From Mycobacterium phage prophiGD15-1, in the sequence record MW584180.1: a DNA stretch of 64,000 bases; one strand, 5' to 3'. Position numbers and translations under genes: made by a program. The first letter of the stretch is position 1. Every line of letters begins with the position of its first letter. Shown here piece by piece: positions 5,457 to 41,770 of the stretch. A model generated the notes under the pieces. The model was given only the letters and a program-made list of their open reading frames with translations. It was not told the origin of the DNA and made no database searches.

Positions 5457-6091
5457 CCACCATCTACCAAGCGCTATCCGAGGTGATGAAGGATGTCGGA
5501 GCCGTCCGCAAGGGTGAGCGGAACCAGCAGCAAGGCTTCTCATTCCGCGGGATCGATGCAGTCACATCGGCGGTGTATCCAGCTCTCACGAAGCACGGCG
5601 TGATCGTTGTACCGAAGGTCTTGGACTACGAGTACGGGACTGTTGAGGTGGGCCGCAACCGCACCCTCATGGGGCATGCACGGCTGACAGTAGAGTTCAC
5701 CTGGTATGGACCAGATGGTGACTCGATCACCTCTGTCGCCGCAGCAGAGTCAATGGATGCCGGCGACAAAGCTACCGCTAAAGCGCACTCAGTGGCTTTC
5801 CGTACTGCAATGCTACAAACCCTCTGCCTACCAACGGATGAGCCGGACCCAGACTCACAGGTGTATGAGAGGTCATCGGCACCCCCAGAGCGCACCGACG
5901 TAGACGACGCACTCGACGAGCTCGCCGCGGCCTGCACCGAGAACGGGTGGGACCAACGTGAGACCGCAGGGAAGTTCTTCTCTGAGCATGGCAAGCCCCC
6001 GCGGCAGTGCACCGCAGATGTGATCCGCAAGTTCATTGGCGATTTGATCAAGCCTCACCCCGCGGAGCGAGCGGAGGCCGCTAGTGCCTAG
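5453..6091 (+). CDS. ERF-superfamily single-strand annealing protein (recombinase)
   Basis: N-terminal region ...KGERNQQQGFSFRGIDAVTSAVYPALTKHGVIVVP resembles the conserved ERF core (K..N..g.y.y.s.edi...v.p.L). Confidence 0.5.
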   Translation: MTTIYQALSEVMKDVGAVRKGERNQQQGFSFRGIDAVTSAVYPALTKHGVIVVPKVLDYEYGTVEVGRNRTLMGHARLTVEFTWYGPDGDSITSVAAAESMDAGDKATAKAHSVAFRTAMLQTLCLPTDEPDPDSQVYERSSAPPERTDVDDALDELAAACTENGWDQRETAGKFFSEHGKPPRQCTADVIRKFIGDLIKPHPAERAEAASA

Positions 6092-6509
6092 GCCGGATAT
6101 CGGGGATGTGCGCGCCGGCCTGCTAACAGTGAAGCAGGCGGCCAGGATCCGAGGATGTAAACCCAAATATCTTGAGCAGTTGGTATGGCAGGCGGTAAAG
6201 GCGGATGTCCTGGAACGGGATGGGGCCTGTGTTATCTGCTCCCGCCCGGACGGGGTGTTGGACGTTCACCACCGCATGGCCCGCGGGAGCGGCGGAACTT
6301 CCGTGGCCCATATCGCTTTCGGTATGGCCAATCTGATCACTTTATGCAGAGAGCACCACATGTGGGTGGAGGGTAACCCCGACGAGGCTCGCGAGCATGG
6401 CTGGAAGTTAGACCATGGCGACACCCTGCCGGCGGATCTTGAGGTTCTGAGGTTCGGCGCAACAGTCCGTCTCTTTGACGACGGCTCTTTCTTGGCGGTG
6501 GTGGCGTGA
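6084..6509 (+). CDS. HNH endonuclease
   Basis: CVIC...HH...N LITLCREHH motif (Cys pair, His-His, Asn, Cys/His). Confidence 0.6.
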   Translation: MPRPDIGDVRAGLLTVKQAARIRGCKPKYLEQLVWQAVKADVLERDGACVICSRPDGVLDVHHRMARGSGGTSVAHIAFGMANLITLCREHHMWVEGNPDEAREHGWKLDHGDTLPADLEVLRFGATVRLFDDGSFLAVVA

Positions 6510-6922
6510 TGGCAACGTTTGATCCGCTGAATGTGGAGGCCGCTCTTCAGGGATATCCGGTGTCGTTGTCAAAACCGGATCGTGTGGTGGCGGCGAAAGC
6601 CCTAACCGCTCAAGGGTTGTCCGGGACAGAGGTGGCGCGCCGACTGAATGTTACCGACCGCCAGATCGAGCGGTATAAGGCTGAGCCGATGCCTGAACCT
6701 GAAGGCCCTCCAGAGGTGGATTACGAGTTCTGCGGCAACGAAAACGTTTTGGTTCGTAAAGCCACCGAGTTGATCCGGTCTCTGCGAACCAAGGATCACT
6801 TGGAGGTGTTGGGGGATTGTGTGGACTTCTGTGCCTGGCATCCGGGTGTAGCGGCACAGGTTATGTGTGCGTTGGCGTTGTGGGCTGATTCGGGGGAGTG
6901 GGCGTTGGGGAGGTCGGCGTGA
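6506..6922 (+). CDS. HTH DNA-binding protein
   Basis: LTAQGLSGTEVARRLNVTDRQIERYKAE helix-turn-helix. Confidence 0.45.
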   Translation: MMATFDPLNVEAALQGYPVSLSKPDRVVAAKALTAQGLSGTEVARRLNVTDRQIERYKAEPMPEPEGPPEVDYEFCGNENVLVRKATELIRSLRTKDHLEVLGDCVDFCAWHPGVAAQVMCALALWADSGEWALGRSA

Positions 6923-7061
6923 CTGTTTGGCCTACCTACCACTTCTGCCGTTGTGGTCATCAGAGATACCAGCATAACGGTCAATCAGCTGAGTGTTACG
7001 GGGCTTTGGATGACGGTGTGACCCTTTGTGATTGCGGAGGGTTTGTTGAAGACAAGAAGGA

Positions 7062-7328
7062 ATGCGCATGAGCGAGCCTAAGAACGCCAATGAGATCATC
7101 ACGCAAGCCGCGATCAGATGGTACGGCCCCGCCTTCACCCTTGGCAGCGCCGGATTTGGTGGCTTCATCCTTGAAGAACTGAAGGCCAACGGATACGCAG
7201 TAGTAGAACTACCGAGATCCCTGCCGGTAACACCGGAGGTGCAATCCGGGTGTGAGCACACATGCCTTATTGGGTCTGATCTTCTCGCCGCTGCTGCTGC
7301 GGCTGCACGTGATTCGGAGGAGCGATGA
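7062..7328 (+). CDS. hypothetical protein
   Basis: 88-aa ORF, coupled to PAPS reductase-like gene. Confidence 0.35.
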   Translation: MRMSEPKNANEIITQAAIRWYGPAFTLGSAGFGGFILEELKANGYAVVELPRSLPVTPEVQSGCEHTCLIGSDLLAAAAAAARDSEER

Positions 7329-8428
7329 GCGACCTGCGGGAAGGGCTACTTTTTCCCAACCTCCTAACCCGTTCTGAACGTCGTGAATTGGATCGCGAAC
7401 CAGAGCCCAGATTCCTGTATCAGAGCATGGGCGCGGGGTGGCAGTCGACGGCTATAGCGCTCTTAGCGGCGCAGGGGGTCATTGAGAAGCCCCGGTTTGC
7501 GGTATTCGCCGATACCGGCTGGGAGCCACCGGAGGTATACGCGCATCTCGCTCGTCTAGATGAGGAGGTGTTGGCGCCGGCTGGGATAGCCCTGGTGCGC
7601 GTTCGGGCAGGGAGTATCTACGACGAGGCTTTGGACCCCCACTTTCCAAGATCCCTGCCGTTGTACACGAGGGACCCAAAGACTGGCGAGCCAGGCGGTA
7701 TTACCAGCCGGGCCTGCACAACCAACTTCAAGATGATCGCCATCTATCGGTGGTTGCGTGAGCAGTTGGGAGCCAAGGTAAGCGAGGGGTCCTGCACTTT
7801 CTGTAGCGGCGAGGGGCAGCGCAATGCCCCCTGGTTGGTGAAGTATGGACACGAAAAACCCTGGGGTATCTGCTCGGTCTGCCGGGGGACTGGCACTGTC
7901 CGGAAGGTTGGCGCGCCACCACAAGGGGTGTGGGCGCGCAGCTACGTGGGCTTCTCTGCTGATGAGATGGGCCGGATATCGCCGTCGCGCGTGTCCTACG
8001 CCTTCGACACTTTCCCTTTGGTTGGCAGGGATCAAAACGGCGAGGTTGTGCCGCCTGATCTTTCAATGTCTCGGCACGACTGCGGTGAGTACAACACGCG
8101 TCACGGATTCCCTGAGGTGATGAAGTCGGCGTGTATCGGCTGTCCGTGGCATTCGGACGCTGAGTGGATCCGCATCAAACAAGATGAGCGGCAGTGGCAG
8201 CAGGTTGTTGATCTGGACCGCAGTATCCGAAACACCCCCGGTTTAGACAACGAAGCCTTTCTCCATAAGAGCCGCATTCCTATTGAGGATGTGACTTTCG
8301 AGTCGGCGGATGACGTTGAGCGTCCCAGCTGCTCTCCGTACGGATGCCGTAGCGGGCTGGATACCGATTCCGTGGCACCGCCCTCGCTTTTCGATGACGA
8401 CTGGATCGATCTAGAGGAGACCGCATGA
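7325..8428 (+). CDS. phosphoadenosine phosphosulfate (PAPS) reductase-like protein
   Basis: N-terminal PP-loop-like segment FLYQSMGAGWQSTAIALL and overall similarity to the PAPS-reductase fold found in actinophages; C-terminal Cys cluster. Confidence 0.6.
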   Translation: MSDLREGLLFPNLLTRSERRELDREPEPRFLYQSMGAGWQSTAIALLAAQGVIEKPRFAVFADTGWEPPEVYAHLARLDEEVLAPAGIALVRVRAGSIYDEALDPHFPRSLPLYTRDPKTGEPGGITSRACTTNFKMIAIYRWLREQLGAKVSEGSCTFCSGEGQRNAPWLVKYGHEKPWGICSVCRGTGTVRKVGAPPQGVWARSYVGFSADEMGRISPSRVSYAFDTFPLVGRDQNGEVVPPDLSMSRHDCGEYNTRHGFPEVMKSACIGCPWHSDAEWIRIKQDERQWQQVVDLDRSIRNTPGLDNEAFLHKSRIPIEDVTFESADDVERPSCSPYGCRSGLDTDSVAPPSLFDDDWIDLEETA

Positions 8429-8560
8429 CCGACCTTTGTTCCTGCGGCCACGATCTCGATGAGCATCAACGTCACTACGGCACTTGTAAAGCCACTATCC
8501 CTGGTTCTTTTGAGCCTCTTTACCGGTACTGCCCTTGTGGGGGATTTGATAGGAGTGACG

Positions 8561-8713
8561 ATGAGTGACGAGCGTCTGGATTCCTTGGCGAAAGAACTCT
8601 GCGAGAAGCGTTCTGTGTCCGCGCCGCTGCGATGGGATTCGCTCACATCTGACCAGAAAGACACATGGCGGCGGATGGCTGCGCAGCGCCTCAACGACCA
8701 GGAGGCGGTGTAG
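8561..8713 (+). CDS. hypothetical protein
   Basis: small ORF with RBS-like GGAG upstream. Confidence 0.3.
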   Translation: MSDERLDSLAKELCEKRSVSAPLRWDSLTSDQKDTWRRMAAQRLNDQEAV

Positions 8714-9649
8714 ATGGGCTGGATACGCGTCTCTGATGACTTCTACGACAACGACAAGTTCAGTGAAGTCGGACCACTGGGGGTGGCGCTGCACTTCGCG
8801 GCGATGGGTTTCTGTAACCGGAACCTAACGGACGGATTCTTCAAAAAGAACAAGGCTCGACTTTTCCTTGACTTCGACGGCATCGGTATCACCACTAGTC
8901 AATCGGATTGCTTCGGTGTTGGCGTCGACGGTGATGACGCGGTGAAGTTGGTCATCGAATGGATGATGGCATCAGAGCTTTGGCACGAGTGTGGCCATGG
9001 GTGCGAGGAATGTCATTCCCGCGAAGACGGCGGCGAACCTGGCGGCGATGAGTACCTGATCCACGACTACCTGAAGTTCCAGTTTTCGCGTCAGGAAATC
9101 GAGGAGAAGGCCGAGAAAGCTAGGGCGCGCAAGGAGGCCTGGAAGGCTAGGCAGGCGGTAGAACGTAGTTCGGAACAGCGTTCGGAACGGGGGAAGAACG
9201 GCGTTCGGAACGCTGCAGGAACGCTGGCGGAACACGACAACCCAACCCCAACCCCAACCCCAACCCCAACCCCAACGAAAGATTCATTCTTCGTTCCTCA
9301 GAATGAATCTTTAGGGGGGTCACCAAAACCGGGAACCTCACCAGAGCCCGAGTCGGCGTCAGCCCCGCGCTGCGCGCGCCACCCCTACGGAAATCCCGAA
9401 GACGAAAACTGCCGGGGCTGCAAGCGAGTCAAAGACGCCGAGAAGGCACAGGAACTCCAGGCCGAAATCGCAGAGAAGGCGGCACGCACAGCAGCAGCCG
9501 AGCGGCGACGCAACTGCAAGCTCTGCGGCGGCAGCGGATGGATCGACCTCCCTGACGATTCCGGCGTCATCGACTGCGAATGCAAGACGCCCATCCCAAA
9601 TCTCCAGCTTGTCCATGACGCCACAAACCAAAGGAGGTCGGCATCGTGA
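8714..9649 (+). CDS. putative replication initiation / replisome-organiser-like protein with (PT)7 linker and C-terminal Cys4 zinc-finger motifs
   Basis: N-terminus MGWIRVSDDFYDNDKFSEVGPLGVALHFAAMGF resembles phage replisome organiser/DnaD-like N-termini; CRGCKRV and CKLCGGSG...CEC motifs. Confidence 0.4.
   Translation: MGWIRVSDDFYDNDKFSEVGPLGVALHFAAMGFCNRNLTDGFFKKNKARLFLDFDGIGITTSQSDCFGVGVDGDDAVKLVIEWMMASELWHECGHGCEECHSREDGGEPGGDEYLIHDYLKFQFSRQEIEEKAEKARARKEAWKARQAVERSSEQRSERGKNGVRNAAGTLAEHDNPTPTPTPTPTPTKDSFFVPQNESLGGSPKPGTSPEPESASAPRCARHPYGNPEDENCRGCKRVKDAEKAQELQAEIAEKAARTAAAERRRNCKLCGGSGWIDLPDDSGVIDCECKTPIPNLQLVHDATNQRRSAS
9240..9283 (+). repeat. hexanucleotide tandem repeat (CCAACC)x7 encoding PTPTPTPTPTPT
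   Basis: seen directly in sequence. Confidence 0.85.
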
Positions 9650-18983: not shown

Positions 18984-19286
18984 CTAGGGGCATAGGTTCC
19001 GTTTCGCCGATCGCGCCATAGCCAACAGATTGGCTGGTGTCGCGTTCGGATAGTTGGAGTGCGAGGCGACCTGCTCGGGGGTTTCCCCGTTGCGCAAGTC
19101 ATTGCACATGCCGTTCCCGGCGGCCAGTAGGAACGGCCGGGACTGCCACATCACTTGAAAACCCTGCCCGGACAGTTCGTCCAGGTAGGCGTCATCGTCC
19201 GCGTACGCCGCGGGCGCGAAAACAATGCTGGCCGCTACGGCGGCTGCAGCTGCGATCTTGATCATTGGCGGATCGTAGACCTCCAC
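18984..19286 (-). CDS. secreted DUF732-like protein (minus strand)
   Basis: signal peptide IKIAAAAAVAASIVFAPAAYA, mature domain with Cys...Cys-Pro end; only confident minus-strand gene inside the phage body. Confidence 0.55.
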   Translation of the reverse strand: MEVYDPPMIKIAAAAAVAASIVFAPAAYADDDAYLDELSGQGFQVMWQSRPFLLAAGNGMCNDLRNGETPEQVASHSNYPNATPANLLAMARSAKRNLCP

Positions 19287-19394: not shown

Positions 19395-20657
19395 GTGCTC
19401 GGGGTAGCGATCACCACCCACAACCGCCGAGATGTCCTCCTCAACGCGTTAACGCACTGGATCGAGCACACCTCGGCTGATGTGCCAATTGTCGTTGTGG
19501 ACGACGGCAGCGACGAGCCCCTATGCCTTGAAGGCTGGCGCGGTATCCCGGTGCATCGAGTTCCTAGCGTGAGCGTTGTTCGCCATCCACAACCTATGGG
19601 GATAGCGGTGGCGAAAAACCGTTGCATCGCCGAGCTCATGGACTTGGGGTGCGACCACCTGTTTCTCGCTGACGACGATGTGTGGCCCACCGTAGACGAG
19701 TGGTGGAAGCCTTACGTTGAGTCGCCGGAACCGCATCTGTCGTTCCAGTGGCCCAGCGGCGGCCGACACAGCGTCACCCACCAAGACGAGCAGCATTTCG
19801 CCATCGGATTCCCCCGCGGAGTTCTCCTATACGCCGAACGCCGAGTGATCGACACGGTGGGCGGCATGGACACCGGATATGGGGCGCACGGCGGCGAACA
19901 CGTCGACTGGTCACAGAGAATCCACGACGCAGGGTTGACGCGATGGCCGTTCGCCGATGTCCGAGGATCACACAACTTGATCTACTCCCGCGACAAAGCC
20001 GAAGGAAACCGAACAGGTTCTTCCCGGTTTGAGCTTCCCGAGCGTGCCCGGATGTGTGAGGCCAATGGAAACCGTTGGGGCCACAAGCACCCAACATGGC
20101 CGTACTTTCCATTCCGGGGAGGCGAGGGCGTCCAGGACTACCAGTTAGGCCCGTACTTCCCGCCCGCGGAGCATTATTCGCTGCTGCGGCATGTGGTCGG
20201 TTTGAGACCTTCCGGTGTGGCTTTGGAGTTTGGGGTGGGTAAAGGCGAATCGACCCGCATCATTGCCGAGCACATGCCGGTGATCGGATTCGACAGCTTC
20301 ACCGGACTGCCTGAGGATTGGCGCGACGGATTCCCTAAGGGGTCGTTCGCGCATAAACCACCAGCCATCAACAACACTCGCCTAGTGATAGGTCGGTATG
20401 CCGACACCCTGCCAGGGTTCACGTTCCCTGAGTGTGGTTTGGTGCATATCGACTGCGACCTGTACTCGTCCACGGCAACAGCTCTGGAATATCTACAGCT
20501 CAAGCCTGGAACTTATGTCGTTTTTGATGAGTGGCACAGCTACGACGGCTGCGAAGACCACGAGATGAAAGCCTGGCGCGAATATGCCGACCGCACCGGC
20601 ATCAACTGGTGTGTGGTTGGGCATTCGCATGAGGCTTGGGCGATTCGGATCACCTAG
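19395..20657 (+). CDS. bifunctional family-2 glycosyltransferase / TylF-MycF-type SAM-dependent O-methyltransferase fusion
   Basis: N-terminus GVAITTHNRRDVLLNALTHWIEHTSADVPIVVVDDGSDEP (GT-A, DxD); C-terminal half LEFGVGKGESTRIIAEH...VHIDCDLYSSTATALEYL...LKPGTYVVFDEW (class I MT, macrocin-O-MT like). Confidence 0.65.
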   Translation: MLGVAITTHNRRDVLLNALTHWIEHTSADVPIVVVDDGSDEPLCLEGWRGIPVHRVPSVSVVRHPQPMGIAVAKNRCIAELMDLGCDHLFLADDDVWPTVDEWWKPYVESPEPHLSFQWPSGGRHSVTHQDEQHFAIGFPRGVLLYAERRVIDTVGGMDTGYGAHGGEHVDWSQRIHDAGLTRWPFADVRGSHNLIYSRDKAEGNRTGSSRFELPERARMCEANGNRWGHKHPTWPYFPFRGGEGVQDYQLGPYFPPAEHYSLLRHVVGLRPSGVALEFGVGKGESTRIIAEHMPVIGFDSFTGLPEDWRDGFPKGSFAHKPPAINNTRLVIGRYADTLPGFTFPECGLVHIDCDLYSSTATALEYLQLKPGTYVVFDEWHSYDGCEDHEMKAWREYADRTGINWCVVGHSHEAWAIRIT

Positions 20658-20663
20658 GGAGTT

Positions 20664-21485
20664 GTGTTGCGAGTCATCCTCTTTGTGTTCGCGGGCCGTA
20701 AAGCCAATATGCAACTCCAGGTACCGTACATCAAACGCATCCTGGCTGAGCATCCGAATGTTGAATACGACATCTGGAACCTCGCCCGCGACCCCAAGGA
20801 CGCGGAGTATCTGCAAACCATCACGGGCGAGCGGATCACCGTCCGTAACGACTTCCATGGCGGATGCCATTGGACCGGTTTCAACAAGGTGTGGTGGTAC
20901 TACGCCCAACCCGAGTATCGGGACTGTTTGTTCGTCAAGGTCGATGACGATGACGTGTTCTTCGAGACCGCACGCTTCGGTGAATACCTTGAGGCGATAG
21001 ACAACAACCGCGGCAGCGTTGTCTCCGCGCTGACCGTGAACAACGGCGCCTCAACATGGTTGGAGCCGCTGATTTGGCGCGGCTTCGAGAACCTGAACAT
21101 CCCTTTGTTGGATGTGCACATGTCCGGCGACTACGCCCACATGTCACACGAGCATTTCCTGACCAATTGGCGGGATGTGACTGGTCAACCCAACCAGGTC
21201 ATCCCGACGACGGACTGGTTGTCGATCAACTGCATCGGACTCGACCACCCCACCCTGAAACGCATCGCAGACCTACTGGACACCCCTTCGCCTGCCCATA
21301 TCGCAGGCAGGGATTGGCCGCACGGCTTCAAGATCGGTGACGAAGGTGCAGCCAATATGCAGCCCCGAGTCATCCATAGAGGGTTTGTGGTGTCGCACCT
21401 ATCGTTTGGACCTCAAGAACTCCCCGATGAGACGTGGGACCAGCTGCGCGCTGGTTATGCGAAGGTCGCAGGGGAGTACCTGTGA
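20664..21485 (+). CDS. putative glycosyltransferase
   Basis: 273-aa ORF in glycosylation cluster, DDDD acidic motif (KVDDDDVFF); family not assignable by eye. Confidence 0.4.
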   Translation: MLRVILFVFAGRKANMQLQVPYIKRILAEHPNVEYDIWNLARDPKDAEYLQTITGERITVRNDFHGGCHWTGFNKVWWYYAQPEYRDCLFVKVDDDDVFFETARFGEYLEAIDNNRGSVVSALTVNNGASTWLEPLIWRGFENLNIPLLDVHMSGDYAHMSHEHFLTNWRDVTGQPNQVIPTTDWLSINCIGLDHPTLKRIADLLDTPSPAHIAGRDWPHGFKIGDEGAANMQPRVIHRGFVVSHLSFGPQELPDETWDQLRAGYAKVAGEYL

Positions 21486-22177
21486 ACGTCGCCGTGATCA
21501 TCCCGTTCCGGGACCGCGGTAAGGACCCTCTAAGGCCCGCGAATCTGCGACGCGTCCTGATGGGCATGGAGGGGCTGTACCGCATCCATGTTGTTGATGA
21601 CGGCCGCTCAGGCTATGAGTCGTTCAATCGATCCGCCGCATATAACCGCGGTGCCGACATGGTTGACGCCGATGTACTTATCTACTGCGAATCAGATCTG
21701 CTGGTCGACCCTATCCAGATTCGGGAAGCGGTCGCGCTGGCTTCGTTGACACCAGGTTTAGTCGTTCCGTTCTCACGCTTCATGGCCATTGCCCCCGAGG
21801 ACTCGGTTCGCGTCCGAGACCTTGAGTTAGAGCCCGAAGAAGCTGTATCGCATCAGGTCCGAGGCGACCGTCAGTCGATCGGTGCCGTCAATGTCGTCTC
21901 CCGGGAATCACTCTCACTGATCGGTCAATACGACGAGTCGTTTGAGGGTGCTTGGTATGACGATGACGCGATGTGCCGAGCGTTTGAGGTGTGCTGCGGC
22001 CCAACCCGCTTCATAGACGGCCCCGGATATCACCTGTACCACCTACCCGGCGCCAGCGGCGATCATTTGACCGACGCTGATCGTGCCGCCACTGAACGCA
22101 ACAAGGCCCGCTACCAGCTGTACCGGCAGGCAACAACACCGGAACGTATCCGCGAACTCACCGCAGGGGGTGTGTGA
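21482..22177 (+). CDS. GT-A fold glycosyltransferase (family 2 / galactosyltransferase-like)
   Basis: VAVIIPFRDRG start and DxD-like HVVDDG; GTGA overlap with upstream gene. Confidence 0.55.
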   Translation: MNVAVIIPFRDRGKDPLRPANLRRVLMGMEGLYRIHVVDDGRSGYESFNRSAAYNRGADMVDADVLIYCESDLLVDPIQIREAVALASLTPGLVVPFSRFMAIAPEDSVRVRDLELEPEEAVSHQVRGDRQSIGAVNVVSRESLSLIGQYDESFEGAWYDDDAMCRAFEVCCGPTRFIDGPGYHLYHLPGASGDHLTDADRAATERNKARYQLYRQATTPERIRELTAGGV

Positions 22178-22422
22178 TGGCCGACCATCTCATCACCGGC
22201 CCTGACGGCATCCAGTACACCTTGGCGGAGTGGGTGAACTCCCACATCGTTGGAACTTTCGAGCAGATGCTCCCCGGCGGGAAGACCCGCAAGGGCGGTG
22301 CCTGCTCGTGTGGGTGGCGCACCCCGCCTTTCGATCCTGTCGGTGATCGCGCTAAAGCGATGGCCGATGAACATAAGCGTCTAGAAGACCTCGCTGATGA
22401 GATGCGAAGGGAGAATGGTTAA
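22174..22422 (+). CDS. hypothetical protein
   Basis: ATGA-coupled 82-aa ORF. Confidence 0.35.
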   Translation: MMADHLITGPDGIQYTLAEWVNSHIVGTFEQMLPGGKTRKGGACSCGWRTPPFDPVGDRAKAMADEHKRLEDLADEMRRENG

Positions 22423-22838
22423 TGGCAGCCTTCGTGTACTTCACTGTGGCCGACACCTATCAGGCCATCGTCTCTGATGGGTCTGATGAGGGTAGCGAGC
22501 CGGATCTGAAGATGATTTCCGGCACGGTCACTTTCACTCCGTCGGTGAAGGAAGTGCTGGCCACCATCTCCGATATCCCCACCACGGTGCGTTTGGAGCC
22601 GATCATTGGCCGCATCGAGGAAGACGGTGTGCTGAAGACTCTCGATTCCACACCAGGTGTGAAGCTGCTCGCCAACACCGAAGCAATCGGGCCACTGCCT
22701 GAGCTGACGTATCGGGTGGACTTCACGAACGTGGTCTACAACCGCAAGACCAACCAGCGCATCGAACCGTTCCGGTTCGCCGCTGCCACAAGCGCCACCA
22801 CGCTGCGCTTGTCTTCGGTTGAGCGCCTGCCGCTTTAG
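22422..22838 (+). CDS. hypothetical protein
   Basis: 138-aa ORF. Confidence 0.4.
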   Translation: MAAFVYFTVADTYQAIVSDGSDEGSEPDLKMISGTVTFTPSVKEVLATISDIPTTVRLEPIIGRIEEDGVLKTLDSTPGVKLLANTEAIGPLPELTYRVDFTNVVYNRKTNQRIEPFRFAAATSATTLRLSSVERLPL

Positions 22839-22912
22839 GCACACGTACTAGGCGCCCCTACCCGTCCAAAGGTAGGACCAGTTAAGTCAAGTCGAGAATT
22901 GAGGGAACAACT

Positions 22913-23281
22913 ATGTCTGTCGACGTGATCCATGTGCCAGGCGGTATCGGTGGCCGCTACGAGGATTACTACTTTCCTGTCCAAGCGGCGCAGGTCCGAA
23001 ACCTGCTAGGCAAGATCCTGACCCATATCGAGGCCATGAACCTTCCACCGCGCGTTGAGAAGGCCAACAAAGACCTGGTCCGCCAATCCATCTGGGACTG
23101 GTGGTCCGACGCCATGGAGAACTCCACCACCTCAGCGGGCGGATGCATTGGGCCGATCGAGAACATTCGGGAAGCCCGCACATCTGACGACAAGCCAAAC
23201 CGATATGTGTGGCACACGACGGTTGGAGAGCTGGCGCCCAAGGCGCCGAAGATGTTCGTCACATACAGAGACAAGCGCTGA
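22913..23281 (+). CDS. hypothetical protein
   Basis: 122-aa ORF with RBS. Confidence 0.4.
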   Translation: MSVDVIHVPGGIGGRYEDYYFPVQAAQVRNLLGKILTHIEAMNLPPRVEKANKDLVRQSIWDWWSDAMENSTTSAGGCIGPIENIREARTSDDKPNRYVWHTTVGELAPKAPKMFVTYRDKR

Positions 23282-23499
23282 TGAGCGACGAGCAGTACTT
23301 CGGCCCCTTCTGGGTCGGCATCAAGACTCGAGATTTCTGCGGTAAGCGCCTACCGAAGCGAGATCATAAGCCGTGGATCGACGACGGCGTCTATGGGGAG
23401 ATCTACTGGGGCGATAGCGCGGGGGCCCGCGAGCTCGCGCAACATCTACTCGACGCAGCGGACGCCTATGACGCACTCGCTTCGGAGTTCAACTCATGA
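23281..23499 (+). CDS. hypothetical protein
   Basis: TGATG-coupled. Confidence 0.35.
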   Translation: MSDEQYFGPFWVGIKTRDFCGKRLPKRDHKPWIDDGVYGEIYWGDSAGARELAQHLLDAADAYDALASEFNS

Positions 23500-23699
23500 G
23501 ACCCGACGAACGCATGAACCAGCTCCAGCGAAGAGTGGTTAACCATGCCCTGGCGGATCGGATGCTGAAAGTATCGCGGGGCGAGCCGATATCCGTTATG
23601 CGGGGATGGGCCAAGGATGGAAAGACCTTTCACTTCCTTGAGCCAGACCTATCTGGCGTGGATTGGCACCATGAGATGCAGAGGCTTTGGTGGGCTTGA
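23496..23699 (+). CDS. hypothetical protein
   Basis: ATGA-coupled. Confidence 0.35.
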   Translation: MRPDERMNQLQRRVVNHALADRMLKVSRGEPISVMRGWAKDGKTFHFLEPDLSGVDWHHEMQRLWWA

Positions 23700-24328
23700 C
23701 CTACCGCATCGGCATAGTTGGCCATAACAAGCGGGCCGCCGCGGCCCATAACCTGATGGAAGCTACTGGTGCAGCGTTCCTGTCGTTAGACAACGGATCT
23801 AAGGGCTGCAACGGCAACCACCGCCATGTACTCGAGTGGCTATCCACCAGCCCTACTGAGTGGGTAGTTGTCCTTGAGGATGACGCCCAACCCATAGACG
23901 ACTTCCGCACACAGCTCGATAAAGCGCTCACCGCGGCCCCTTGTGACATTGTGTCCCTGTATTTGGGGACCAACTATCCGCGTCTATGGCAGCGCGGCAT
24001 ACAACGCGCCACAACCCAAGCCGACCAAACTGATTCGCCCTGGCTGGTATCCGAGCATCTACTACACGCAGTGGGGTATTGCATCCGCACCACCCTGGTA
24101 CCTGATCTTCTCGACGCCCTACCTGAGATGCCCATTGACGACGCCATCACCACATGGGCCAGAGACCAAGAGCACCGCATCGCCTACACATGGCCAAGCC
24201 TCGTAGACCACGAGGATGCGGACACCTTGATCTCCAAGCGCCCCACACGTAACGCCCCACGCAAGGCCCACCGCACAGGCACACGCACCCAATGGGCTGG
24301 CCCCACCGTAGAACTGGAGTACTGCTGA
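23687..24328 (+). CDS. putative glycosyltransferase (GT-A-like)
   Basis: VVVLEDDAQP acidic motif after a Rossmann-like N-terminus; assignment tentative. Confidence 0.3.
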   Translation: MVGLTYRIGIVGHNKRAAAAHNLMEATGAAFLSLDNGSKGCNGNHRHVLEWLSTSPTEWVVVLEDDAQPIDDFRTQLDKALTAAPCDIVSLYLGTNYPRLWQRGIQRATTQADQTDSPWLVSEHLLHAVGYCIRTTLVPDLLDALPEMPIDDAITTWARDQEHRIAYTWPSLVDHEDADTLISKRPTRNAPRKAHRTGTRTQWAGPTVELEYC

Positions 24329-24469: not shown

Positions 24470-24754
24470 ATGCCCGTCCTAGTCTGCTCACGAGGCAAGG
24501 AATACGTACACCCATCAGGCACGCACTACCTGTCCAGTCCCACCAATGTGCTGCACATCTTCAATGGTGAAACCAACGTCGCGTCCTACCGCGAATGGGA
24601 CTATGCCTGGATACCCAACGGAGAACCCGGCACAGGCCAACACGTCGACAACTCGATCAACTTCAACAGGCCAGTCGGTGTCACCACCGTGGAGGAGCAG
24701 CAGAAGCGCGCGCGTCTGCAGTTGTCCCGAGATGGCCATGCCCCGCGCACCTAG
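24470..24754 (+). CDS. hypothetical protein
   Basis: 94-aa ORF with AAGGGGG RBS. Confidence 0.35.
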   Translation: MPVLVCSRGKEYVHPSGTHYLSSPTNVLHIFNGETNVASYREWDYAWIPNGEPGTGQHVDNSINFNRPVGVTTVEEQQKRARLQLSRDGHAPRT

Positions 24755-25085
24755 AGTCTGCGCACACCCTGACTGCACAGAGCTGGTGCATGGCGCTAGG
24801 CGCTGCCCCCAGCATCAGGTAAGCGGCTGGTCCTCTAGTCCACGCACCGCATCCGCAGGACGCACAGGAACCAGCGCATGGAGACGCACCAGAGCCTACG
24901 TCCTACACCGCGACAACCACACATGCCAGATACGCGGACCACGATGCACCACCCACGCCACCGAAGTCGACCACATCAAACCAGTCAGCCTCGGCGGCAC
25001 AGACTTCGCAATCAACTGCCAAGCAACCTGCCACACCTGCCACGCCTGGAAAACCGCACAGGAAGCCAACACGGCCCGGCAATGA
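24732..25085 (+). CDS. HNH endonuclease (terminase-associated)
   Basis: CAHPDC...C..H...HTC...THATEVDHIKPVSLGG...N.QATCHTCH; immediately upstream of terminase genes. Confidence 0.6.
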   Translation: MAMPRAPRVCAHPDCTELVHGARRCPQHQVSGWSSSPRTASAGRTGTSAWRRTRAYVLHRDNHTCQIRGPRCTTHATEVDHIKPVSLGGTDFAINCQATCHTCHAWKTAQEANTARQ

Positions 25086-25211: not shown

Positions 25212-25673
25212 TTGATGATGCCTGGACCCACCAAGAAAGATCCGAGTCTGGTTGCTCGGCGCAATAAGACGACGACCAGGGCTGTTTTGTCTGCCGATCA
25301 CGACATTGAAGCGCCCGAGCTCCCTGCGGAGATCGCGTGGCATTCGATGACGAAGCGTTGGTGGGCTGATATTTGGTCGTCTCCGATGGCTCCCGAGTAT
25401 GCGGAGTCGGACATCAACGGTTTGTTGCGTGTGGCGATGTTGTACAACGACTTTTGGTTGGCGGAGACAGCGAAAGAGCGGGCTGAGATTCAGGTTCGGC
25501 TCGAGAAGGCCGATGTCGACTACGGAACTAACCCGATGGCTCGGCGCCGGCTGGAATGGCAGATCGAGCAGTCGGAGGATTCGAAGGCAAAGGGACAGAA
25601 GCGCCGCGGCGTCCCCAACCCCGCCCCGATGCCAGAACCCGACTCCGATCCGCGGCTCAAGCTAGTCCAATAG
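25212..25673 (+). CDS. terS: terminase small subunit
   Basis: position directly upstream of TerL; size ~150 aa; W-rich DNA-binding region. Confidence 0.5.
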   Translation: MMMPGPTKKDPSLVARRNKTTTRAVLSADHDIEAPELPAEIAWHSMTKRWWADIWSSPMAPEYAESDINGLLRVAMLYNDFWLAETAKERAEIQVRLEKADVDYGTNPMARRRLEWQIEQSEDSKAKGQKRRGVPNPAPMPEPDSDPRLKLVQ

Positions 25674-25680
25674 TCCCGCC

Positions 25681-27333
25681 ATGGCGGTTCTGATTGTTCC
25701 GCCGCTCGACCTGTCCTACCCGACATTGGGGCCGCAGGTCTGCCAGTTCATCGAAGAGCGGATGGTGTTCGGCCCCGGATCCCTATCGGGGCAGCCGGCA
25801 CGCCTCGATGACGAGAAGCGCGGCATCATCTACCGCCTCTACGAGATCTACCCGCAAGGGCACCGGCTTGCGGGGCGGCGCAGGTTTCAGCGTGGAGCCA
25901 TTGAGGTCCGTAAGGGGCTGGCGAAAACCGAGCTCGCCGCTTGGATATCGGGTTGCGAGCTGCACCCCGAGGCTCCGGTTCGGTGCGACGGGTTCGACGC
26001 CAGCGGCAATCCGGTCGGCCGGCCCGTGGAGTCGCCCGTCATTCCGATGATGGCGGTCACCGAGGAGCAGGTGGAAGAGCTCGCGTACGGCGTGCTCAAG
26101 TATGTGCTCGAAAATGGGCCTGACGCGGAACTGTTCGTGATCACTAAAGAGAAGATCATCCGAAAGGGCTGGAACGGAACCGAAGACGGCTTTGTCGTCG
26201 CGGTATCCAACGCCCCCGGATCCCGAGACGGTGCACGAACCACCTTCCAGCACTTCGATGAACCACACCGATTGTTCATGCAGCGGATGCGGGACGCGCA
26301 CGAAACGATGCTCCAGAACATGCCGAAGCGGCCCCTCGAGGATCCGTGGACGCTGTACACCTCCACCGCGGGCCAGCCGGGGCAGAACAGCATCGAAGAG
26401 GATGTTCTCGCCGAAGCGGAAGCTATCGACAAAGGTGAGGTTGACGACCCCAGCCTGTTCTTCTTCCGCCGATGGGCCGGCGACGAGCACCGCGACCTAT
26501 CCACTGTGGAGAACCGGATCGCAGCCGTCGCAGACGCCACCGGCCCCGTAGGGGAGTGGGGCGTCGGCCAGTTTGAGCGGATCGCAAAGGACTACGACCG
26601 CAAGGGCATCGACAAAGCCTACTGGGAACGGGTGTGGCTGAATCGGTGGCGCAAATCTGGCTACCAAGCGTTCGACATGCTCAAAGTCGAATCCCTGCGC
26701 TTCGAGGACGAAGACAAACCGTGGGGTCCGATACCGGACGCCGCGTTCGTCACCGCAGGGTTTGACGGCGCGAGGTTCCGTGACGCCACTGCACTCACCA
26801 TCACGGATATCGAGACCGGACGGCAGATGCTTTTGGGCTGCTGGGAGCGCCCTGAAAACGCTGAGGACTGGGAAATCCCAGAGGATGAGGTCACGGACCT
26901 AGTCACGGACATGATGTCCCGGTATGAGGTGTGGCGCATGTACTGCGACCCGCCCCACTGGACAGAAACCGTTGCTTCATGGGCGGCCCGATTCCCCGAT
27001 CAAGTTGTCGAGTGGTTCACCCAACGCAAAACGCCTATGGCCGCCGCGGTTAGGGCGTATGTCGAGGCTATCGATTCCGGGATTGTCACTTATGGCGAAA
27101 ACGCCTGGCAAGAGACGCTGATCAAGCATATGGGAAACGCTGGCAGACACGAGTTGAAGCTCCTTGACGACCAGGGAGCGCCGCTGTGGATCCTCCAGAA
27201 GCAAGACGGGCGCCTCGAGGACAAGTTCGACGCAGCAATGTCCGCGGTCCTGTCCTGGACAGCCTGTGTCGATGCTCGACGATCCGGGGCTAAGCCGCGG
27301 CCGAAATCTTATGTGCCGAGGCGCATCTACTAA
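25681..27333 (+). CDS. terL: terminase large subunit
   Basis: 550 aa; Walker-like ATPase N-domain and acidic nuclease C-domain; canonical position. Confidence 0.8.
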   Translation: MAVLIVPPLDLSYPTLGPQVCQFIEERMVFGPGSLSGQPARLDDEKRGIIYRLYEIYPQGHRLAGRRRFQRGAIEVRKGLAKTELAAWISGCELHPEAPVRCDGFDASGNPVGRPVESPVIPMMAVTEEQVEELAYGVLKYVLENGPDAELFVITKEKIIRKGWNGTEDGFVVAVSNAPGSRDGARTTFQHFDEPHRLFMQRMRDAHETMLQNMPKRPLEDPWTLYTSTAGQPGQNSIEEDVLAEAEAIDKGEVDDPSLFFFRRWAGDEHRDLSTVENRIAAVADATGPVGEWGVGQFERIAKDYDRKGIDKAYWERVWLNRWRKSGYQAFDMLKVESLRFEDEDKPWGPIPDAAFVTAGFDGARFRDATALTITDIETGRQMLLGCWERPENAEDWEIPEDEVTDLVTDMMSRYEVWRMYCDPPHWTETVASWAARFPDQVVEWFTQRKTPMAAAVRAYVEAIDSGIVTYGENAWQETLIKHMGNAGRHELKLLDDQGAPLWILQKQDGRLEDKFDAAMSAVLSWTACVDARRSGAKPRPKSYVPRRIY

Positions 27334-29402: not shown

Positions 29403-30233
29403 ATGGCTGTTACCCATTTCATCCCCGAAATCTGGTCGTCCTACATTCTTGAGCGCTACATGGCCAAGAATGTGTTCGCCTCCCTCGTTGACCGCAAGTA
29501 CGAAGGTGAAGCCCGCAAGGGCAACACCATCCACATCCCCGGTGTGGTCGCCCCGGCGGTCAAGGACTACAAGGCGGCTAGCCGCACCACGTCGGCAGAC
29601 GCCATCAGCGACACCGGAATCGACATCCTGATCGATCAGGAGAAGAACTTCGACTTCTACGTCGACGACATCGACAACGCGCAGTCGAACGAAAACCTGC
29701 TGCCGCTGTACACCGACGCCGCCGGTGACTCGCTGGCCACCGACGCCGACCAGTTCATCGCCAACCTGCTTGTCGCCAACGCCACCGGCATGCCATGGTC
29801 GTCCAACCCCACCACGGGAGATGGCGCGTTCAACGTCGTCAAGGACGCCCGCAAGCTGATGAACAAGGCCAACGTTCCTGACGACGATCTGCGTGTCGCG
29901 GTTGTGAACGCCGAGTTCGAAGCCTTGCTGGTCGGTGCTGATTCGAAGCTCACCAGCTTCGATTCGTCCGGCGACACCGCTGGTCTGCGCAACGCCACTG
30001 TTGGAAAGCTGCTCGGATTCCGTGTGGTTACCTCGAACAACCTGCCTGAGTCTGACTCGCCGCAGGCCGTGTTCTTCCACCAGCGTGCCGCAGCGTTCGT
30101 GTCTCAGATTGACGAGGTCGAAGGCATGCGCGCACAGGACAAGTTCGCCGACCGCATCCGCGGCCTGCATGTGTACGGCGGCAAGGTCGTTCAGGCCCCC
30201 GGCGTGCTCGTCTTCAACCGGGCCGGCAGCTAG
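29403..30233 (+). CDS. major capsid protein
   Basis: 276 aa following scaffold, GGAAGGAG RBS; canonical position. Confidence 0.75.
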   Translation: MAVTHFIPEIWSSYILERYMAKNVFASLVDRKYEGEARKGNTIHIPGVVAPAVKDYKAASRTTSADAISDTGIDILIDQEKNFDFYVDDIDNAQSNENLLPLYTDAAGDSLATDADQFIANLLVANATGMPWSSNPTTGDGAFNVVKDARKLMNKANVPDDDLRVAVVNAEFEALLVGADSKLTSFDSSGDTAGLRNATVGKLLGFRVVTSNNLPESDSPQAVFFHQRAAAFVSQIDEVEGMRAQDKFADRIRGLHVYGGKVVQAPGVLVFNRAGS

Positions 30234-31846: not shown

Positions 31847-32434
31847 ATGGCTGAAGAAGTCGGCAACGTTTTCGCCGCAGAGCCGTCCGCCGCTGGGGCC
31901 GCGTTCGTCGCCCCGCTCGGAACTACCCTCCCAACCAGTGTCGACGGAGTGCTCGATGCCGCGTTCGTCGGTCTTGGGTATGTCGGCGAGGACGGTATCA
32001 CTGAAACATCGGAGCGGTCCACCGATGAGAAGAAAGACATGGGTGGCCGCATCGTCAAGGTGCTGCAGACCGAGTACAACCACTCGTTCAAATTCGTCCT
32101 CCTGGAATCGCTGAATGCCGATGTCCTCAAGGCGATCTACGGTGCTTCAAACGTCACCGTCACCCCCGCTGACGGTACTCACGGCACCCAGGTGAAGGTC
32201 CGCAAGACCAGCAAGAAGCTGCCCCACCAGACGTGGGTGTTCGACACCATCGACTCGGAGCTGTCCGCGAAGTACCGCAACTGCGTCGCAGACGGGCAGG
32301 TCATCTCTGTTGGTGATGTGACCTTGGCTAGCAAGGACACCATCGAATACGAGGTGGAACTGAAGGTCTTCGAGTCGTCCACCGGTGAATACGTGACCAC
32401 GTACACCGACGACGGGCGGATCGCGGGCTCCTAA
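31847..32434 (+). CDS. major tail protein
   Basis: 195 aa, strong RBS, position before chaperones/TMP. Confidence 0.65.
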   Translation: MAEEVGNVFAAEPSAAGAAFVAPLGTTLPTSVDGVLDAAFVGLGYVGEDGITETSERSTDEKKDMGGRIVKVLQTEYNHSFKFVLLESLNADVLKAIYGASNVTVTPADGTHGTQVKVRKTSKKLPHQTWVFDTIDSELSAKYRNCVADGQVISVGDVTLASKDTIEYEVELKVFESSTGEYVTTYTDDGRIAGS

Positions 32435-40173: not shown

Positions 40174-40692
40174 TTGGCTGCAGATAAGTACGTTCCGCGT
40201 GCCTTACAAGCCTATGCGGAGAAGCAGAAGGCCCAGGACGCGCAGAAAGCGGAGATGGAAAGCGCCTATCAGGACTTTCTGACGGACTGCCACTACCCGC
40301 AGGACAAAGACGGAAACCGCATGGACTCGGCGCATTTCGTGTGGCTTGTGGGTTACCACATGATCAGGTGCGGGTGGCGGCGCTCGGCGCAACCCCTCAT
40401 CAAACCGCGGGCCGTTGAAGCGCCCGGGGTAGTCGAAGGCGCAATCGAATGGGTTCCTATCGACGCACCCGACGACCCCTTAGAGGGCGTCGAGAACATG
40501 ACGTTCGCACAGATCAACGCCCTACCGGAGTGGCTGAAACGCAAAGCGATACAGCGACTCAACGGCAACCAAGACGCAGATGACGACCTACCCGAAATGG
40601 CCGAACCGGCATGGCGGGTGACTCCGAACATCGCCATCAAGGATGAGCGACCCATCGGGGATGACTTCGTGAAGGGAATCGAGAATGGCTGA
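40174..40692 (+). CDS. minor tail protein
   Basis: position. Confidence 0.4.
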   Translation: MAADKYVPRALQAYAEKQKAQDAQKAEMESAYQDFLTDCHYPQDKDGNRMDSAHFVWLVGYHMIRCGWRRSAQPLIKPRAVEAPGVVEGAIEWVPIDAPDDPLEGVENMTFAQINALPEWLKRKAIQRLNGNQDADDDLPEMAEPAWRVTPNIAIKDERPIGDDFVKGIENG

Positions 40693-41770
40693 ACCGGGCG
40701 ATACCCCCTACCTTGGGTCGATCCTTGCGCGCCTGCACTTCTGGGGTGTCGTCTCCGATATGGACGTACCTGGCGGCGTCACAGGCACATTCGAGCTCGC
40801 CGACCAAGACGGCGCAGTCACCATGGACGCCCTCGTAGGGCCTCCTGGTCCCGCTGGTGAGAATGCCCCCATCGTCAAGATGCAGTACCAGTCCAGCATC
40901 GACGACCCCGCCGATCTTCCCCAAAACCTCACCGACGATCCGATCGATATCGGAAAAGCCTGGTGGGTAGGCAACATCGTCTACCTGTGGGACGGCGAAC
41001 ACTACGTCCAGAAGCAGATGGGCACACAAGGCCCCCCGGGACCGCTGCCGAACATCACTCCCACGGTCCAACTGCTGGACCCGGACAACCCCAGTTTGAC
41101 CTCGGAGATCATCGTTTCGGGTACCTCCGCCAACCCGACATGGCTCCTGAAGCTCAAAGCACCGCGGGGTCCGCAGGGCGATAACGCCACCATCCGAGAC
41201 GCAACCGACTATGACGACTCGGTCGCGCCCGCCGCGGGACAGGTCATTGCCTGGAACGGTGTCGACTACGCGCCAGCCGACTTCAACCCCTTGGCGACAA
41301 GGTTCTACACCGTCCCCGAGTCTGCGTTCACCGACTTCACGGGTCTAGCCACGCGACAGACGATCGGCTCATTCATCATCCCGCCGATGCCGTTCGACTA
41401 CGTACCCGTAGTGCACGGGCATTTCAAGGCCAACGGCATCGAACTCGACGCCGACCCATTCATCATCGGCTCCGAGGTCCGCATAGGGAATGCCACAAGC
41501 GGCCAGCTGATCGCCAAGGGCGCCGGCAACATGTCCTCCTGGTCCGCCCTGTTCCCGCACGCCTCATCCACGGGCTCCCCGAACACCGCTATCACCCCCG
41601 ACAACGGGATAGGCATGATCCCGGCATACAGCACCGGTACAACGTCAACTTTGTACGTGAACCTCGTCAACGAGGGCATGGCGGGCTTCTACTCCTTCAA
41701 CAAAGCAGGCGCACAGCTCTCAATCCTCATCGTCCCCGTCTCTCCGTTGAAGCCTGAGGACGGCTCCTAG
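40685..41770 (+). CDS. minor tail protein with collagen-like G-P-P/G-P-A triplets
   Basis: VGPPGPAGENAP and GTQGPPGPLP segments. Confidence 0.5.
   Translation: MAEPGDTPYLGSILARLHFWGVVSDMDVPGGVTGTFELADQDGAVTMDALVGPPGPAGENAPIVKMQYQSSIDDPADLPQNLTDDPIDIGKAWWVGNIVYLWDGEHYVQKQMGTQGPPGPLPNITPTVQLLDPDNPSLTSEIIVSGTSANPTWLLKLKAPRGPQGDNATIRDATDYDDSVAPAAGQVIAWNGVDYAPADFNPLATRFYTVPESAFTDFTGLATRQTIGSFIIPPMPFDYVPVVHGHFKANGIELDADPFIIGSEVRIGNATSGQLIAKGAGNMSSWSALFPHASSTGSPNTAITPDNGIGMIPAYSTGTTSTLYVNLVNEGMAGFYSFNKAGAQLSILIVPVSPLKPEDGS

Follow-up and report, generated by a model that had tools for sequence, protein, structure and literature searches.

What does a run of glycosyltransferase genes contribute to a temperate mycobacteriophage when it stands immediately ahead of the packaging genes? 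We examined a 64,000-nucleotide stretch of Mycobacterium phage prophiGD15-1 (MW584180.1; here, the window), in which four such genes, 69, 70, 71, and 77, lie between positions 19395 and 24328. An initial annotation had proposed that gene 69 fuses a glycosyltransferase to a methyltransferase, had compared the cluster with the genes by which a few mycobacteriophages glycosylate their virions, and had offered modification of the host cell envelope as an alternative. Homology, structure prediction, and analogy together indicate that the cluster is very probably a phage-encoded virion glycosylation system of the kind described for phages Che8 and Corndog. The GenBank label "glycosyltransferase" is already attached to all four genes, while the methyltransferase domain of gene 69 is unnamed in the GenBank record of the prophage; a Mycobacterium franklinii homolog of this gene carries the name "TylF/MycF/NovP-related O-methyltransferase".

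The region from 19395 to 24328 is identical (100%) in prophiGD17-2 (MW584161) and two other Mycobacterium abscessus prophages and is 99.5% identical in the released phages phiGD20-1, phiGD22-1, and phiGD23-1, MabA1 relatives that form viable phages. prophiGD17-2 is a 61,797-bp MabA1 prophage equal in length and gene count to prophiATCC19977-1 of the type strain (Dedrick et al., PMC8092301). Positions in MW584161 equal window positions plus 6582, and the prophage ends at approximately window position 55215, with the remainder being host flank.

Gene 69 and its three companion transferases

Gene 69 (19395-20657, plus strand) encodes a predicted GT2 and TylF-type fusion of 420 amino acids, and all four open reading frames (ORFs) of the cluster lie on the plus strand, at the positions first assigned to them or within 9 bases of these (the GenBank starts map to window positions 19395, 20667, 21482, and 23696). 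Residues ~1 to 240 of its product, gp69, are predicted to form a GT-A-fold glycosyltransferase of family GT2, and residues ~249 to 420 are predicted to form a sugar O-methyltransferase of the TylF/MycF/NovP type that depends on S-adenosylmethionine (SAM) and a metal. Both halves match Pfam families above the cutoffs: residues 4 to 109 match PF00535 Glycos_transf_2 (33.9 bits; cutoff, 23.3), residues 327 to 404 match PF05711 TylF (37.8 bits; cutoff, 23), and residues 277 to 379 match PF13578 Methyltransf_24 (30.0 bits; cutoff, 26.3). An AlphaFold2 model built from 53 homologs had a predicted local distance difference test score (pLDDT) of 94 and a predicted template modeling score (pTM) of 0.92. 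Foldseek comparison of the model to the PDB aligned the N-domain with polypeptide N-acetylgalactosaminyltransferases (ppGalNAc-transferases), the chondroitin polymerase K4CP, and heparosan synthase, all of the GT-A fold, and aligned the C-domain with the sugar O-methyltransferases MycF, CalS11, SpnH, and NovP.

The catalytic residues expected of each half are in place. Among the 53 homologs, the nucleotide-binding residues D36/D37 are invariant, as are D93 and D95 of the DXD motif, with D94 near-invariant. In the C-domain, the metal site combines an invariant D378/E379 with a near-invariant D353-x-D355-LYSST, the GxGxG SAM loop occupies residues 280 to 284 within a near-invariant E278-F-G-V-G-x-G284, and the protein aligns with the SpnH-like structures 4cdz and 5i10 across the DxDLYxST motif. 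The segments LEFGVGKGES, VHIDCDLY, and VVFDEW, on which the fusion was originally proposed, are all found in the 420-residue product, and the proposal is borne out by the agreement of Pfam, model, and PDB folds. Absence of a SAM-binding fold from the C-terminal half had been named beforehand as the observation that would speak against it; the fold is present (pLDDT 94; MycF, CalS11, SpnH, and NovP as structural neighbors), and since the motifs are found as well, that objection falls.

Enzymes of the TylF group (TylF, MycF, NovP, CalS11, and SpnH) resemble the C-domain with a Foldseek probability of 1.00 at 21 to 24% identity over ~190 aligned columns, and they share with gp69 the metal-binding D-x-D-LY-x-ST and D-[DE] motifs as well as the GxGxG SAM loop. 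The antibiotic enzymes are stand-alone proteins whose substrates are deoxysugars of macrolides, aminocoumarins, or enediynes or thymidine diphosphate-rhamnose (TDP-rhamnose), whereas the methyltransferase domain of gp69 is shorter (~170 amino acids), has a glycosyltransferase as its fusion partner, and presumably methylates a protein-linked glycan.

The three companion genes had also been called glycosyltransferase-like, and this assignment holds for gp70 through its predicted fold and for gp71 and gp77 through orthology and PHROG membership. Gene 70 (20667-21485, plus strand), the ortholog of Corndog gp36, has no Pfam family match, and its product is predicted to be a GT-A-fold glycosyltransferase from a model with a pLDDT of 96. 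Gene 71 (21482-22177, plus strand), orthologous to Che8 gp109 and Corndog gp37, strongly matches phrog_1721, with Pfam GT2 and GT7N below threshold and a weak profile match to beta-1,4-galactosyltransferase (E = 0.03). Gene 77 (23696-24328, plus strand) encodes a GT25-like glycosyltransferase orthologous to Che8 gp110 and Corndog gp38 and strongly matches phrog_854. Its score against Pfam GT25 is 19.4 bits, under the cutoff of 24, which its orthologs Avani gp107 (28.9 bits) and Jinglebell gp110 (31.5 bits) exceed, and a gp77 profile gave weak matches to mimivirus R655 and GT25 structures (E = 0.008 to 0.36). Single-sequence searches of the PDB with gp70, gp71, and gp77 returned nothing meaningful, and small profiles gave weak GT25 and GT7 matches. 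The acidic motifs of gp71 and gp77 are conserved among their homologs, with E61-D62-D63 of gp77 invariant. The gp77 family is present in 734 phage records, and by this measure gene 77 is the most widely conserved member of the cluster.

Orthology with Che8 and Corndog and the distribution of the fusion

BLASTP places the cluster in one-to-one orthology with Corndog gp35-38 and Che8 gp108-110. For the C-domain of gp69 (residues 249 to 420), identity is 61% with Corndog gp35 and 52% with the C terminus of Che8 gp108; gp70 is 47% identical to Corndog gp36 and has no Che8 counterpart; and full-length comparison gives gp71 66% identity with Che8 gp109 and 60% with Corndog gp37, and gp77 52% with Che8 gp110 and 44% with Corndog gp38. 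According to three published accounts, which cite Freeman et al. 2023, the virions of Che8, Corndog, and Myrna are glycosylated on capsid and tail tube by phage enzymes, and the glycans of Che8-type virions reduce antibody recognition (PMC12363180, PMC11600133, PMC11256854); one of them further describes Che8 gp110 and Corndog gp38 as essential for capsid glycosylation (PMC12363180). The comparison with virion-glycosylating mycobacteriophages made at the outset is thus upheld by orthology with the genes of two such phages.

Che8 (cluster F1) resembles the window in the position of the cluster, which lies at the extreme right end of its genome ahead of HNH and cos, in the predicted fusion of a GT2 domain to a TylF-type methyltransferase in gp108, and in a homologous capsid, with both capsid and tail tube ending in -GS. 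It differs in that the N-terminal GT2 domains of gp108 and gp69 have no BLASTP similarity, that it lacks a gene 70-type GT-A enzyme, that the window has five unrelated small genes interposed in the cluster, and that its host is M. smegmatis rather than M. abscessus. The tail tube proteins, 195 amino acids in the window and 269 in Che8, were picked up by different tblastn queries. Corndog (cluster O) encodes the methyltransferase and the gp36-, gp37-, and gp38-type transferases in the same order as the window, and the ends of its capsid (-GS) and tail tube (-DS) are comparable to those of the window. The Corndog methyltransferase is a stand-alone protein of 194 amino acids, whereas that of the window carries an extra N-terminal GT2 domain, a predicted fifth catalytic domain; the Corndog genes also lie inside the virion structural module, whereas in the window, from a temperate phage, they lie upstream of the terminase genes. 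With four predicted transferase domains in addition to the methyltransferase, the window prophage has the largest complement among the genomes compared.

The fusion had been considered uncommon, and here the initial annotation needs correction. It belongs to a recognized family, with Che8 gp108, Avani gp105, and Jinglebell gp108 likewise GT2-TylF fusions. Rarity is ruled out by these other phage fusions, by PHROG 8858, whose 395-position profile spans the fusion end to end (E = 9e-157), and by at least 70 protein clusters in a large protein collection that align over 100% of gp69 at 46 to 94% identity and come from M. chelonae, M. franklinii, Tsukamurella, and many phage-size metagenomic contigs. 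In full-length form, the Che8-type fusion occurs in 33 phage records and the window-type fusion in 13. The two types appear from their sequences to have the methyltransferase in common and not the GT2 domain, and the methyltransferase stands alone in Corndog, Courthouse, and MosMoris; the methyltransferase must therefore have acquired a GT2 domain on two or more occasions, unless one partner was swapped. For the N-terminal half of gp69, similarity (~38 to 39% identity) is instead to the GT2 module found in Che9c- and Wee-type proteins. The Wee gp104-type GT2 (cluster F, phrog_1579) is homologous to gp69 residues 2 to 244 at 38% identity, and its C-terminal partner is a different region of ~240 amino acids in which Pfam identifies no methyltransferase domain. 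Since the C-terminal regions of Wee gp104 and gp69 differ, the same GT2 module appears to be combined with different partners. What is distinctive in the window is the different GT2 partner together with the complement of four transferases.

Virion C termini as candidate acceptors

If the cluster glycosylates the virion, which proteins would receive the glycan? The predicted substrates are the major capsid protein, encoded by gene 85 (29403-30233, plus strand) and ending ...VFNRAGS, and the major tail (tail tube) protein, encoded by gene 90 (31847-32434, plus strand; phrog_117) and ending ...DDGRIAGS; a possible third is the minor tail protein of gene 97 (40685-41770, plus strand; phrog_1565), which ends ...KPEDGS. 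The capsid is the sole product ending in GS among the 48 annotated coding sequences of a 21-kb stretch, and among the 71 annotated products examined, only the capsid, the tail tube, and gp97 have this ending, against a background of 7 in 588 ORF segments of the window. The weak Che8 homolog of gp97, gp17, ends ...LPLS. Of 22 structural and packaging proteins in Che8, -GS ends are confined to gp6 and gp11, the two proteins that are reported as glycosylated. The extreme C-terminal serine, usually within Gly-Ser, is thus a putative acceptor tag. The glycans of these phages are reportedly carried on C termini.

We compared capsid and tail tube C termini in seven genomes, comprising the window, two reference phages, one metagenomic contig, and those members of a GTDB capsid scan (13 prophage loci) that have a gp77 homolog upstream (3 of 13, L009 to L011). 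The paired ends are ...NRAGS and ...RIAGS in the window, ...NKTGS (gp6) and ...YSDGS in Che8, ...PLVGS and ...IKGDS in Corndog, ...GANAS and ...EETGS in L009 (Nocardia), ...NKGGS and ...KTTGS in L010 (M. sphagni), ...NRAGS and ...APAGS in L011 (M. houstonense, with a Che8-type tail), and ...PAVGS and ...AVTGS in the metagenomic contig, L025. The ten GTDB capsid loci without a nearby transferase end in A, P, T, or E, with serine in none of the ten. The GS and DS ends span capsids of differing size (273 to 276 amino acids in Che8 and the window, 410 in Corndog, and 524 in L025) and two tail tube families, phrog_117 and phrog_792; tblastn searches with the window tail and with Che8-type tails found different loci. 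The L025 contig (scaffold ERZ28614917, 98.9 kb) has the fusion (50% identical) and homologs of gp71 and gp77 inside its structural module, and a run of four virion genes that lies directly upstream of the fusion (5732-9454) encodes proteins that all end in -GS: a major head protein (phrog_777), a protein of unknown function (phrog_779), a major tail protein (phrog_792), and an adaptor (phrog_783).

The observed domain identities, folds, intact catalytic motifs, orthology, operon position, and acceptor-like C termini leave room for a mechanism that we propose as follows. Late in the lytic growth of the MabA1 phage, the four GT-A-fold domains, which are soluble and belong to gp77, gp71, gp70, and the N-terminal half of gp69, would draw on nucleotide-sugars in the host cytoplasm and assemble an O-linked oligosaccharide at the C-terminal serine of capsid gp85 and tail tube gp90, both of which end -Ala-Gly-Ser; minor tail protein gp97 (-Asp-Gly-Ser) might be modified as well. 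We suggest that gp77 is the initiating protein O-glycosyltransferase and leave the order of extension and the identities of the sugars as conjecture. The TylF/MycF-type C-domain of gp69 would use SAM and a divalent metal to methylate a sugar hydroxyl, most likely on a sugar added by its fused GT2 partner or adjacent to that sugar. The outcome would be a sugar coat on the virion surface that, by analogy with Che8, may blunt antibody binding.

A broader proposal, which we offer tentatively and consider possible but doubtful, is that Gly-Ser-COOH is a short, portable recognition tag for transferases of the gp77/Che8 gp110 family. If it were true, the glycoproteome of any phage with a member of this family could be read from its genome; the MabA1 phage would glycosylate gp97 besides its capsid and tail tube; some phages, such as that of L025, would glycosylate at least four virion proteins, an adaptor included; the system would extend to the HK97-like enterobacterial phages HK633, ECP1, and HK542, in which a gp77-like gene lies ahead of the HNH/cos region and the capsid and adaptor end in -GS; and the sites of methylated sugars in the glycan would be marked by the GT2 domains, unrelated to each other, to which one methyltransferase was independently fused. 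As a sufficient marker, the -GS end is ruled out: the capsid and adaptor of HK633 end in -SGS and -EGS, and those of HK97, in which the HK633 transferase found no match, end in the same residues.

A gp77-like transferase was also seen outside the actinobacterial phages. It occurs in the HK97-like coliphages HK633, HK542, ECP1, mEp390, and others, as well as in some Cronobacter, Salmonella, and Aeromonas phages and in Klebsiella and Serratia jumbo phages. In HK633 the gene (L027, 40296-40862) encodes a protein 33% identical to gp77 and lies at the right genome end, and the match adjoins an HNH endonuclease gene in the listed coliphages and in Cronobacter phage ENT39118. Virion glycosylation may therefore occur in some enterobacterial phages.

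Genomic setting and competing explanations

Genes 69 to 77 lie on the plus strand ahead of genes for HNH (24738-25085), the small terminase (25218-25673), and the large terminase (25681-27333), and their overlapping stop and start codons make them a translationally coupled operon that adjoins the cos site and packaging genes. In the virion record of phiGD23-1 the cluster ends ~800 bp before the end of the record, just ahead of HNH, such that, as in Che8, it occupies the right end of the virion genome, where a small ORF and HNH separate it from the genome end. Genes 69, 70, 71, and 77 are kept at 93 to 100% identity in 13 MabA1 prophages and phages. A scan of window positions 16 to 26 kb found no promoter-like sites (3.7 expected) and eight terminator-like sites (6.6 expected).

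This setting bears on the alternative that the enzymes modify glycoconjugates of the host cell envelope, such as glycopeptidolipid, and so change a receptor, exclude superinfecting phages, or alter the host surface. The idea has a precedent in the same prophage, whose Atf-like acetyltransferase MAB_1725c is lysogenically expressed and O-acetylates the host glycopeptidolipid, and the O-methylated rhamnose of M. abscessus glycopeptidolipid would be a plausible substrate for a TylF-type enzyme (PMC10400925). However, atf encodes a membrane protein on the reverse strand beside the integrase gene (MW584161, 2603-3724, to the left of the window start and outside it), whereas the transferase genes lie ~22 kb from atf and ~26 kb from attL, run in the same direction as the early-lytic and virion genes around them, and directly adjoin the packaging genes. 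In RNA sequencing of MabA1 lysogens, the toxin-antitoxin pair stood out by its strong transcription from the phage genes on either side (PMC8092301). The four transferase proteins are predicted to be soluble, with no signal peptide and no transmembrane segment in any of them (maximum Kyte-Doolittle value over 19-residue windows, ≤1.41), and genes 69 to 77 differ from Gtr-type and moron lysogenic-conversion genes in having no transmembrane-level segment and in being codirectional with their neighbors. Orthologs lie inside the virion structural modules of Corndog and L025, and Corndog has no integrase and no reported lysogens (PMC4351075), so exclusion by a lysogen is inapplicable there. An envelope function would also leave the -GS ends of the virion proteins unexplained. 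We consider this alternative, which the initial annotation had raised, unlikely in view of the soluble proteins, the rightward gene array, and the Corndog orthologs; the prophage appears to carry two separate glycan functions, one reported for the host surface and one predicted for the virion.

Glycosylation of phage DNA as an escape from restriction, as by the T4 glucosyltransferases or TET-associated glycosyltransferases, is highly improbable. The N-domain of gp69 does match PF20691 TAGT weakly (E = 0.0015), and several homologs are annotated "glucosyltransferase", but the TAGT match scores 18.9 bits against a cutoff of 27.5 and overlaps the stronger GT2 match. An annotation check, which is not an exhaustive profile scan, covered the 113 annotated genes and found neither a hydroxymethylase nor a TET/JBP-type gene. 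TylF/MycF-type methyltransferases act on sugar hydroxyls of small-molecule or glycan substrates, and the orthologous Che8 and Corndog genes reportedly modify proteins. It is also quite unlikely that the cluster is a mosaic remnant, inactive or active only in part (with gp77 alone working, for example, or the methyltransferase domain nonfunctional). Such decay would fit the five unrelated small genes that split genes 71 and 77 and the score of gp77 under the Pfam GT25 cutoff, but the catalytic motifs are all intact and invariant across at least 50 homologs, the models of gp69 and gp70 are very confident (pLDDT 94 and 96), and the four genes are kept (93 to 100% in the 13 MabA1 genomes) while the interposed genes vary. 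In a Tsukamurella-like contig (L024), the gp77 homolog likewise lies several genes apart from the others.

Several points weigh against a virion glycosylation system of the proposed form. We infer glycosylation in this phage from homology, and the Pfam and PDB sequence matches of gp71 and gp77 are all subthreshold. The contrast between capsids with and without a nearby transferase is confounded by phylogeny, as capsid identity is 63 to 86% for loci with the cluster and at most 55% for those without it, and the -GS C terminus is not sufficient, given that HK97 has an -SGS capsid and no transferase match. The C terminus is a putative attachment site, for which a search of secondary literature found no exact description, and no promoter or terminator signal sets the timing of expression.

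Current mycobacteriophage therapy is directed mainly at M. abscessus and is limited by neutralizing antibodies. If a common prophage of the MabA1 type, including that of ATCC 19977, encodes the fullest glycosylation machinery, phages derived from it would be natural test cases and, were the virion function true, might donate a "stealth coat" cassette to therapeutic phages. Gly-Ser at the C terminus would be a cheap, testable predictor of modified virion proteins. Otherwise, the finding mostly confirms the existing annotation and describes a known kind of virion glycosylation gene set.

Genes 72 to 76 (22177-23699, plus strand) are the five small ORFs between genes 71 and 77. We found no homologs of them in any other cluster-bearing locus examined and no Pfam or PHROG matches to enzyme families, and this stretch is variable among MabA1 prophages (82% coverage, in two pieces); on these grounds they are ruled out as members of the pathway. 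Gene 73 (22422-22838) resembles the N terminus of a tail protein, with PHROG matches to phrog_11690 "tail protein" (E = 6e-52) and to the minor tail N terminus of phrog_10433, and has no paralog elsewhere in the window.

Directly upstream of the cluster is gene 68 (18984-19286, minus strand), the sole reverse-strand gene of this stretch, which encodes a 100-amino-acid DUF732 protein (Pfam E = 1.9e-9) with a hydrophobic, signal-like N-terminal segment. Its opposite orientation suggests that it is a moron whose expression does not depend on the rightward genes around it. A small case of mosaicism at the cluster boundary is seen in phiGD23-1 and its close relatives: an HNH endonuclease gene that the window lacks (gene 108 of phiGD23-1; L002, 2549-2983) is inserted directly upstream of the fusion gene, which is itself annotated four codons longer. 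Farther away, in the early region, gene 32 (7325-8428) encodes a protein with a domain like that of 3′-phosphoadenosine 5′-phosphosulfate (PAPS) reductase.

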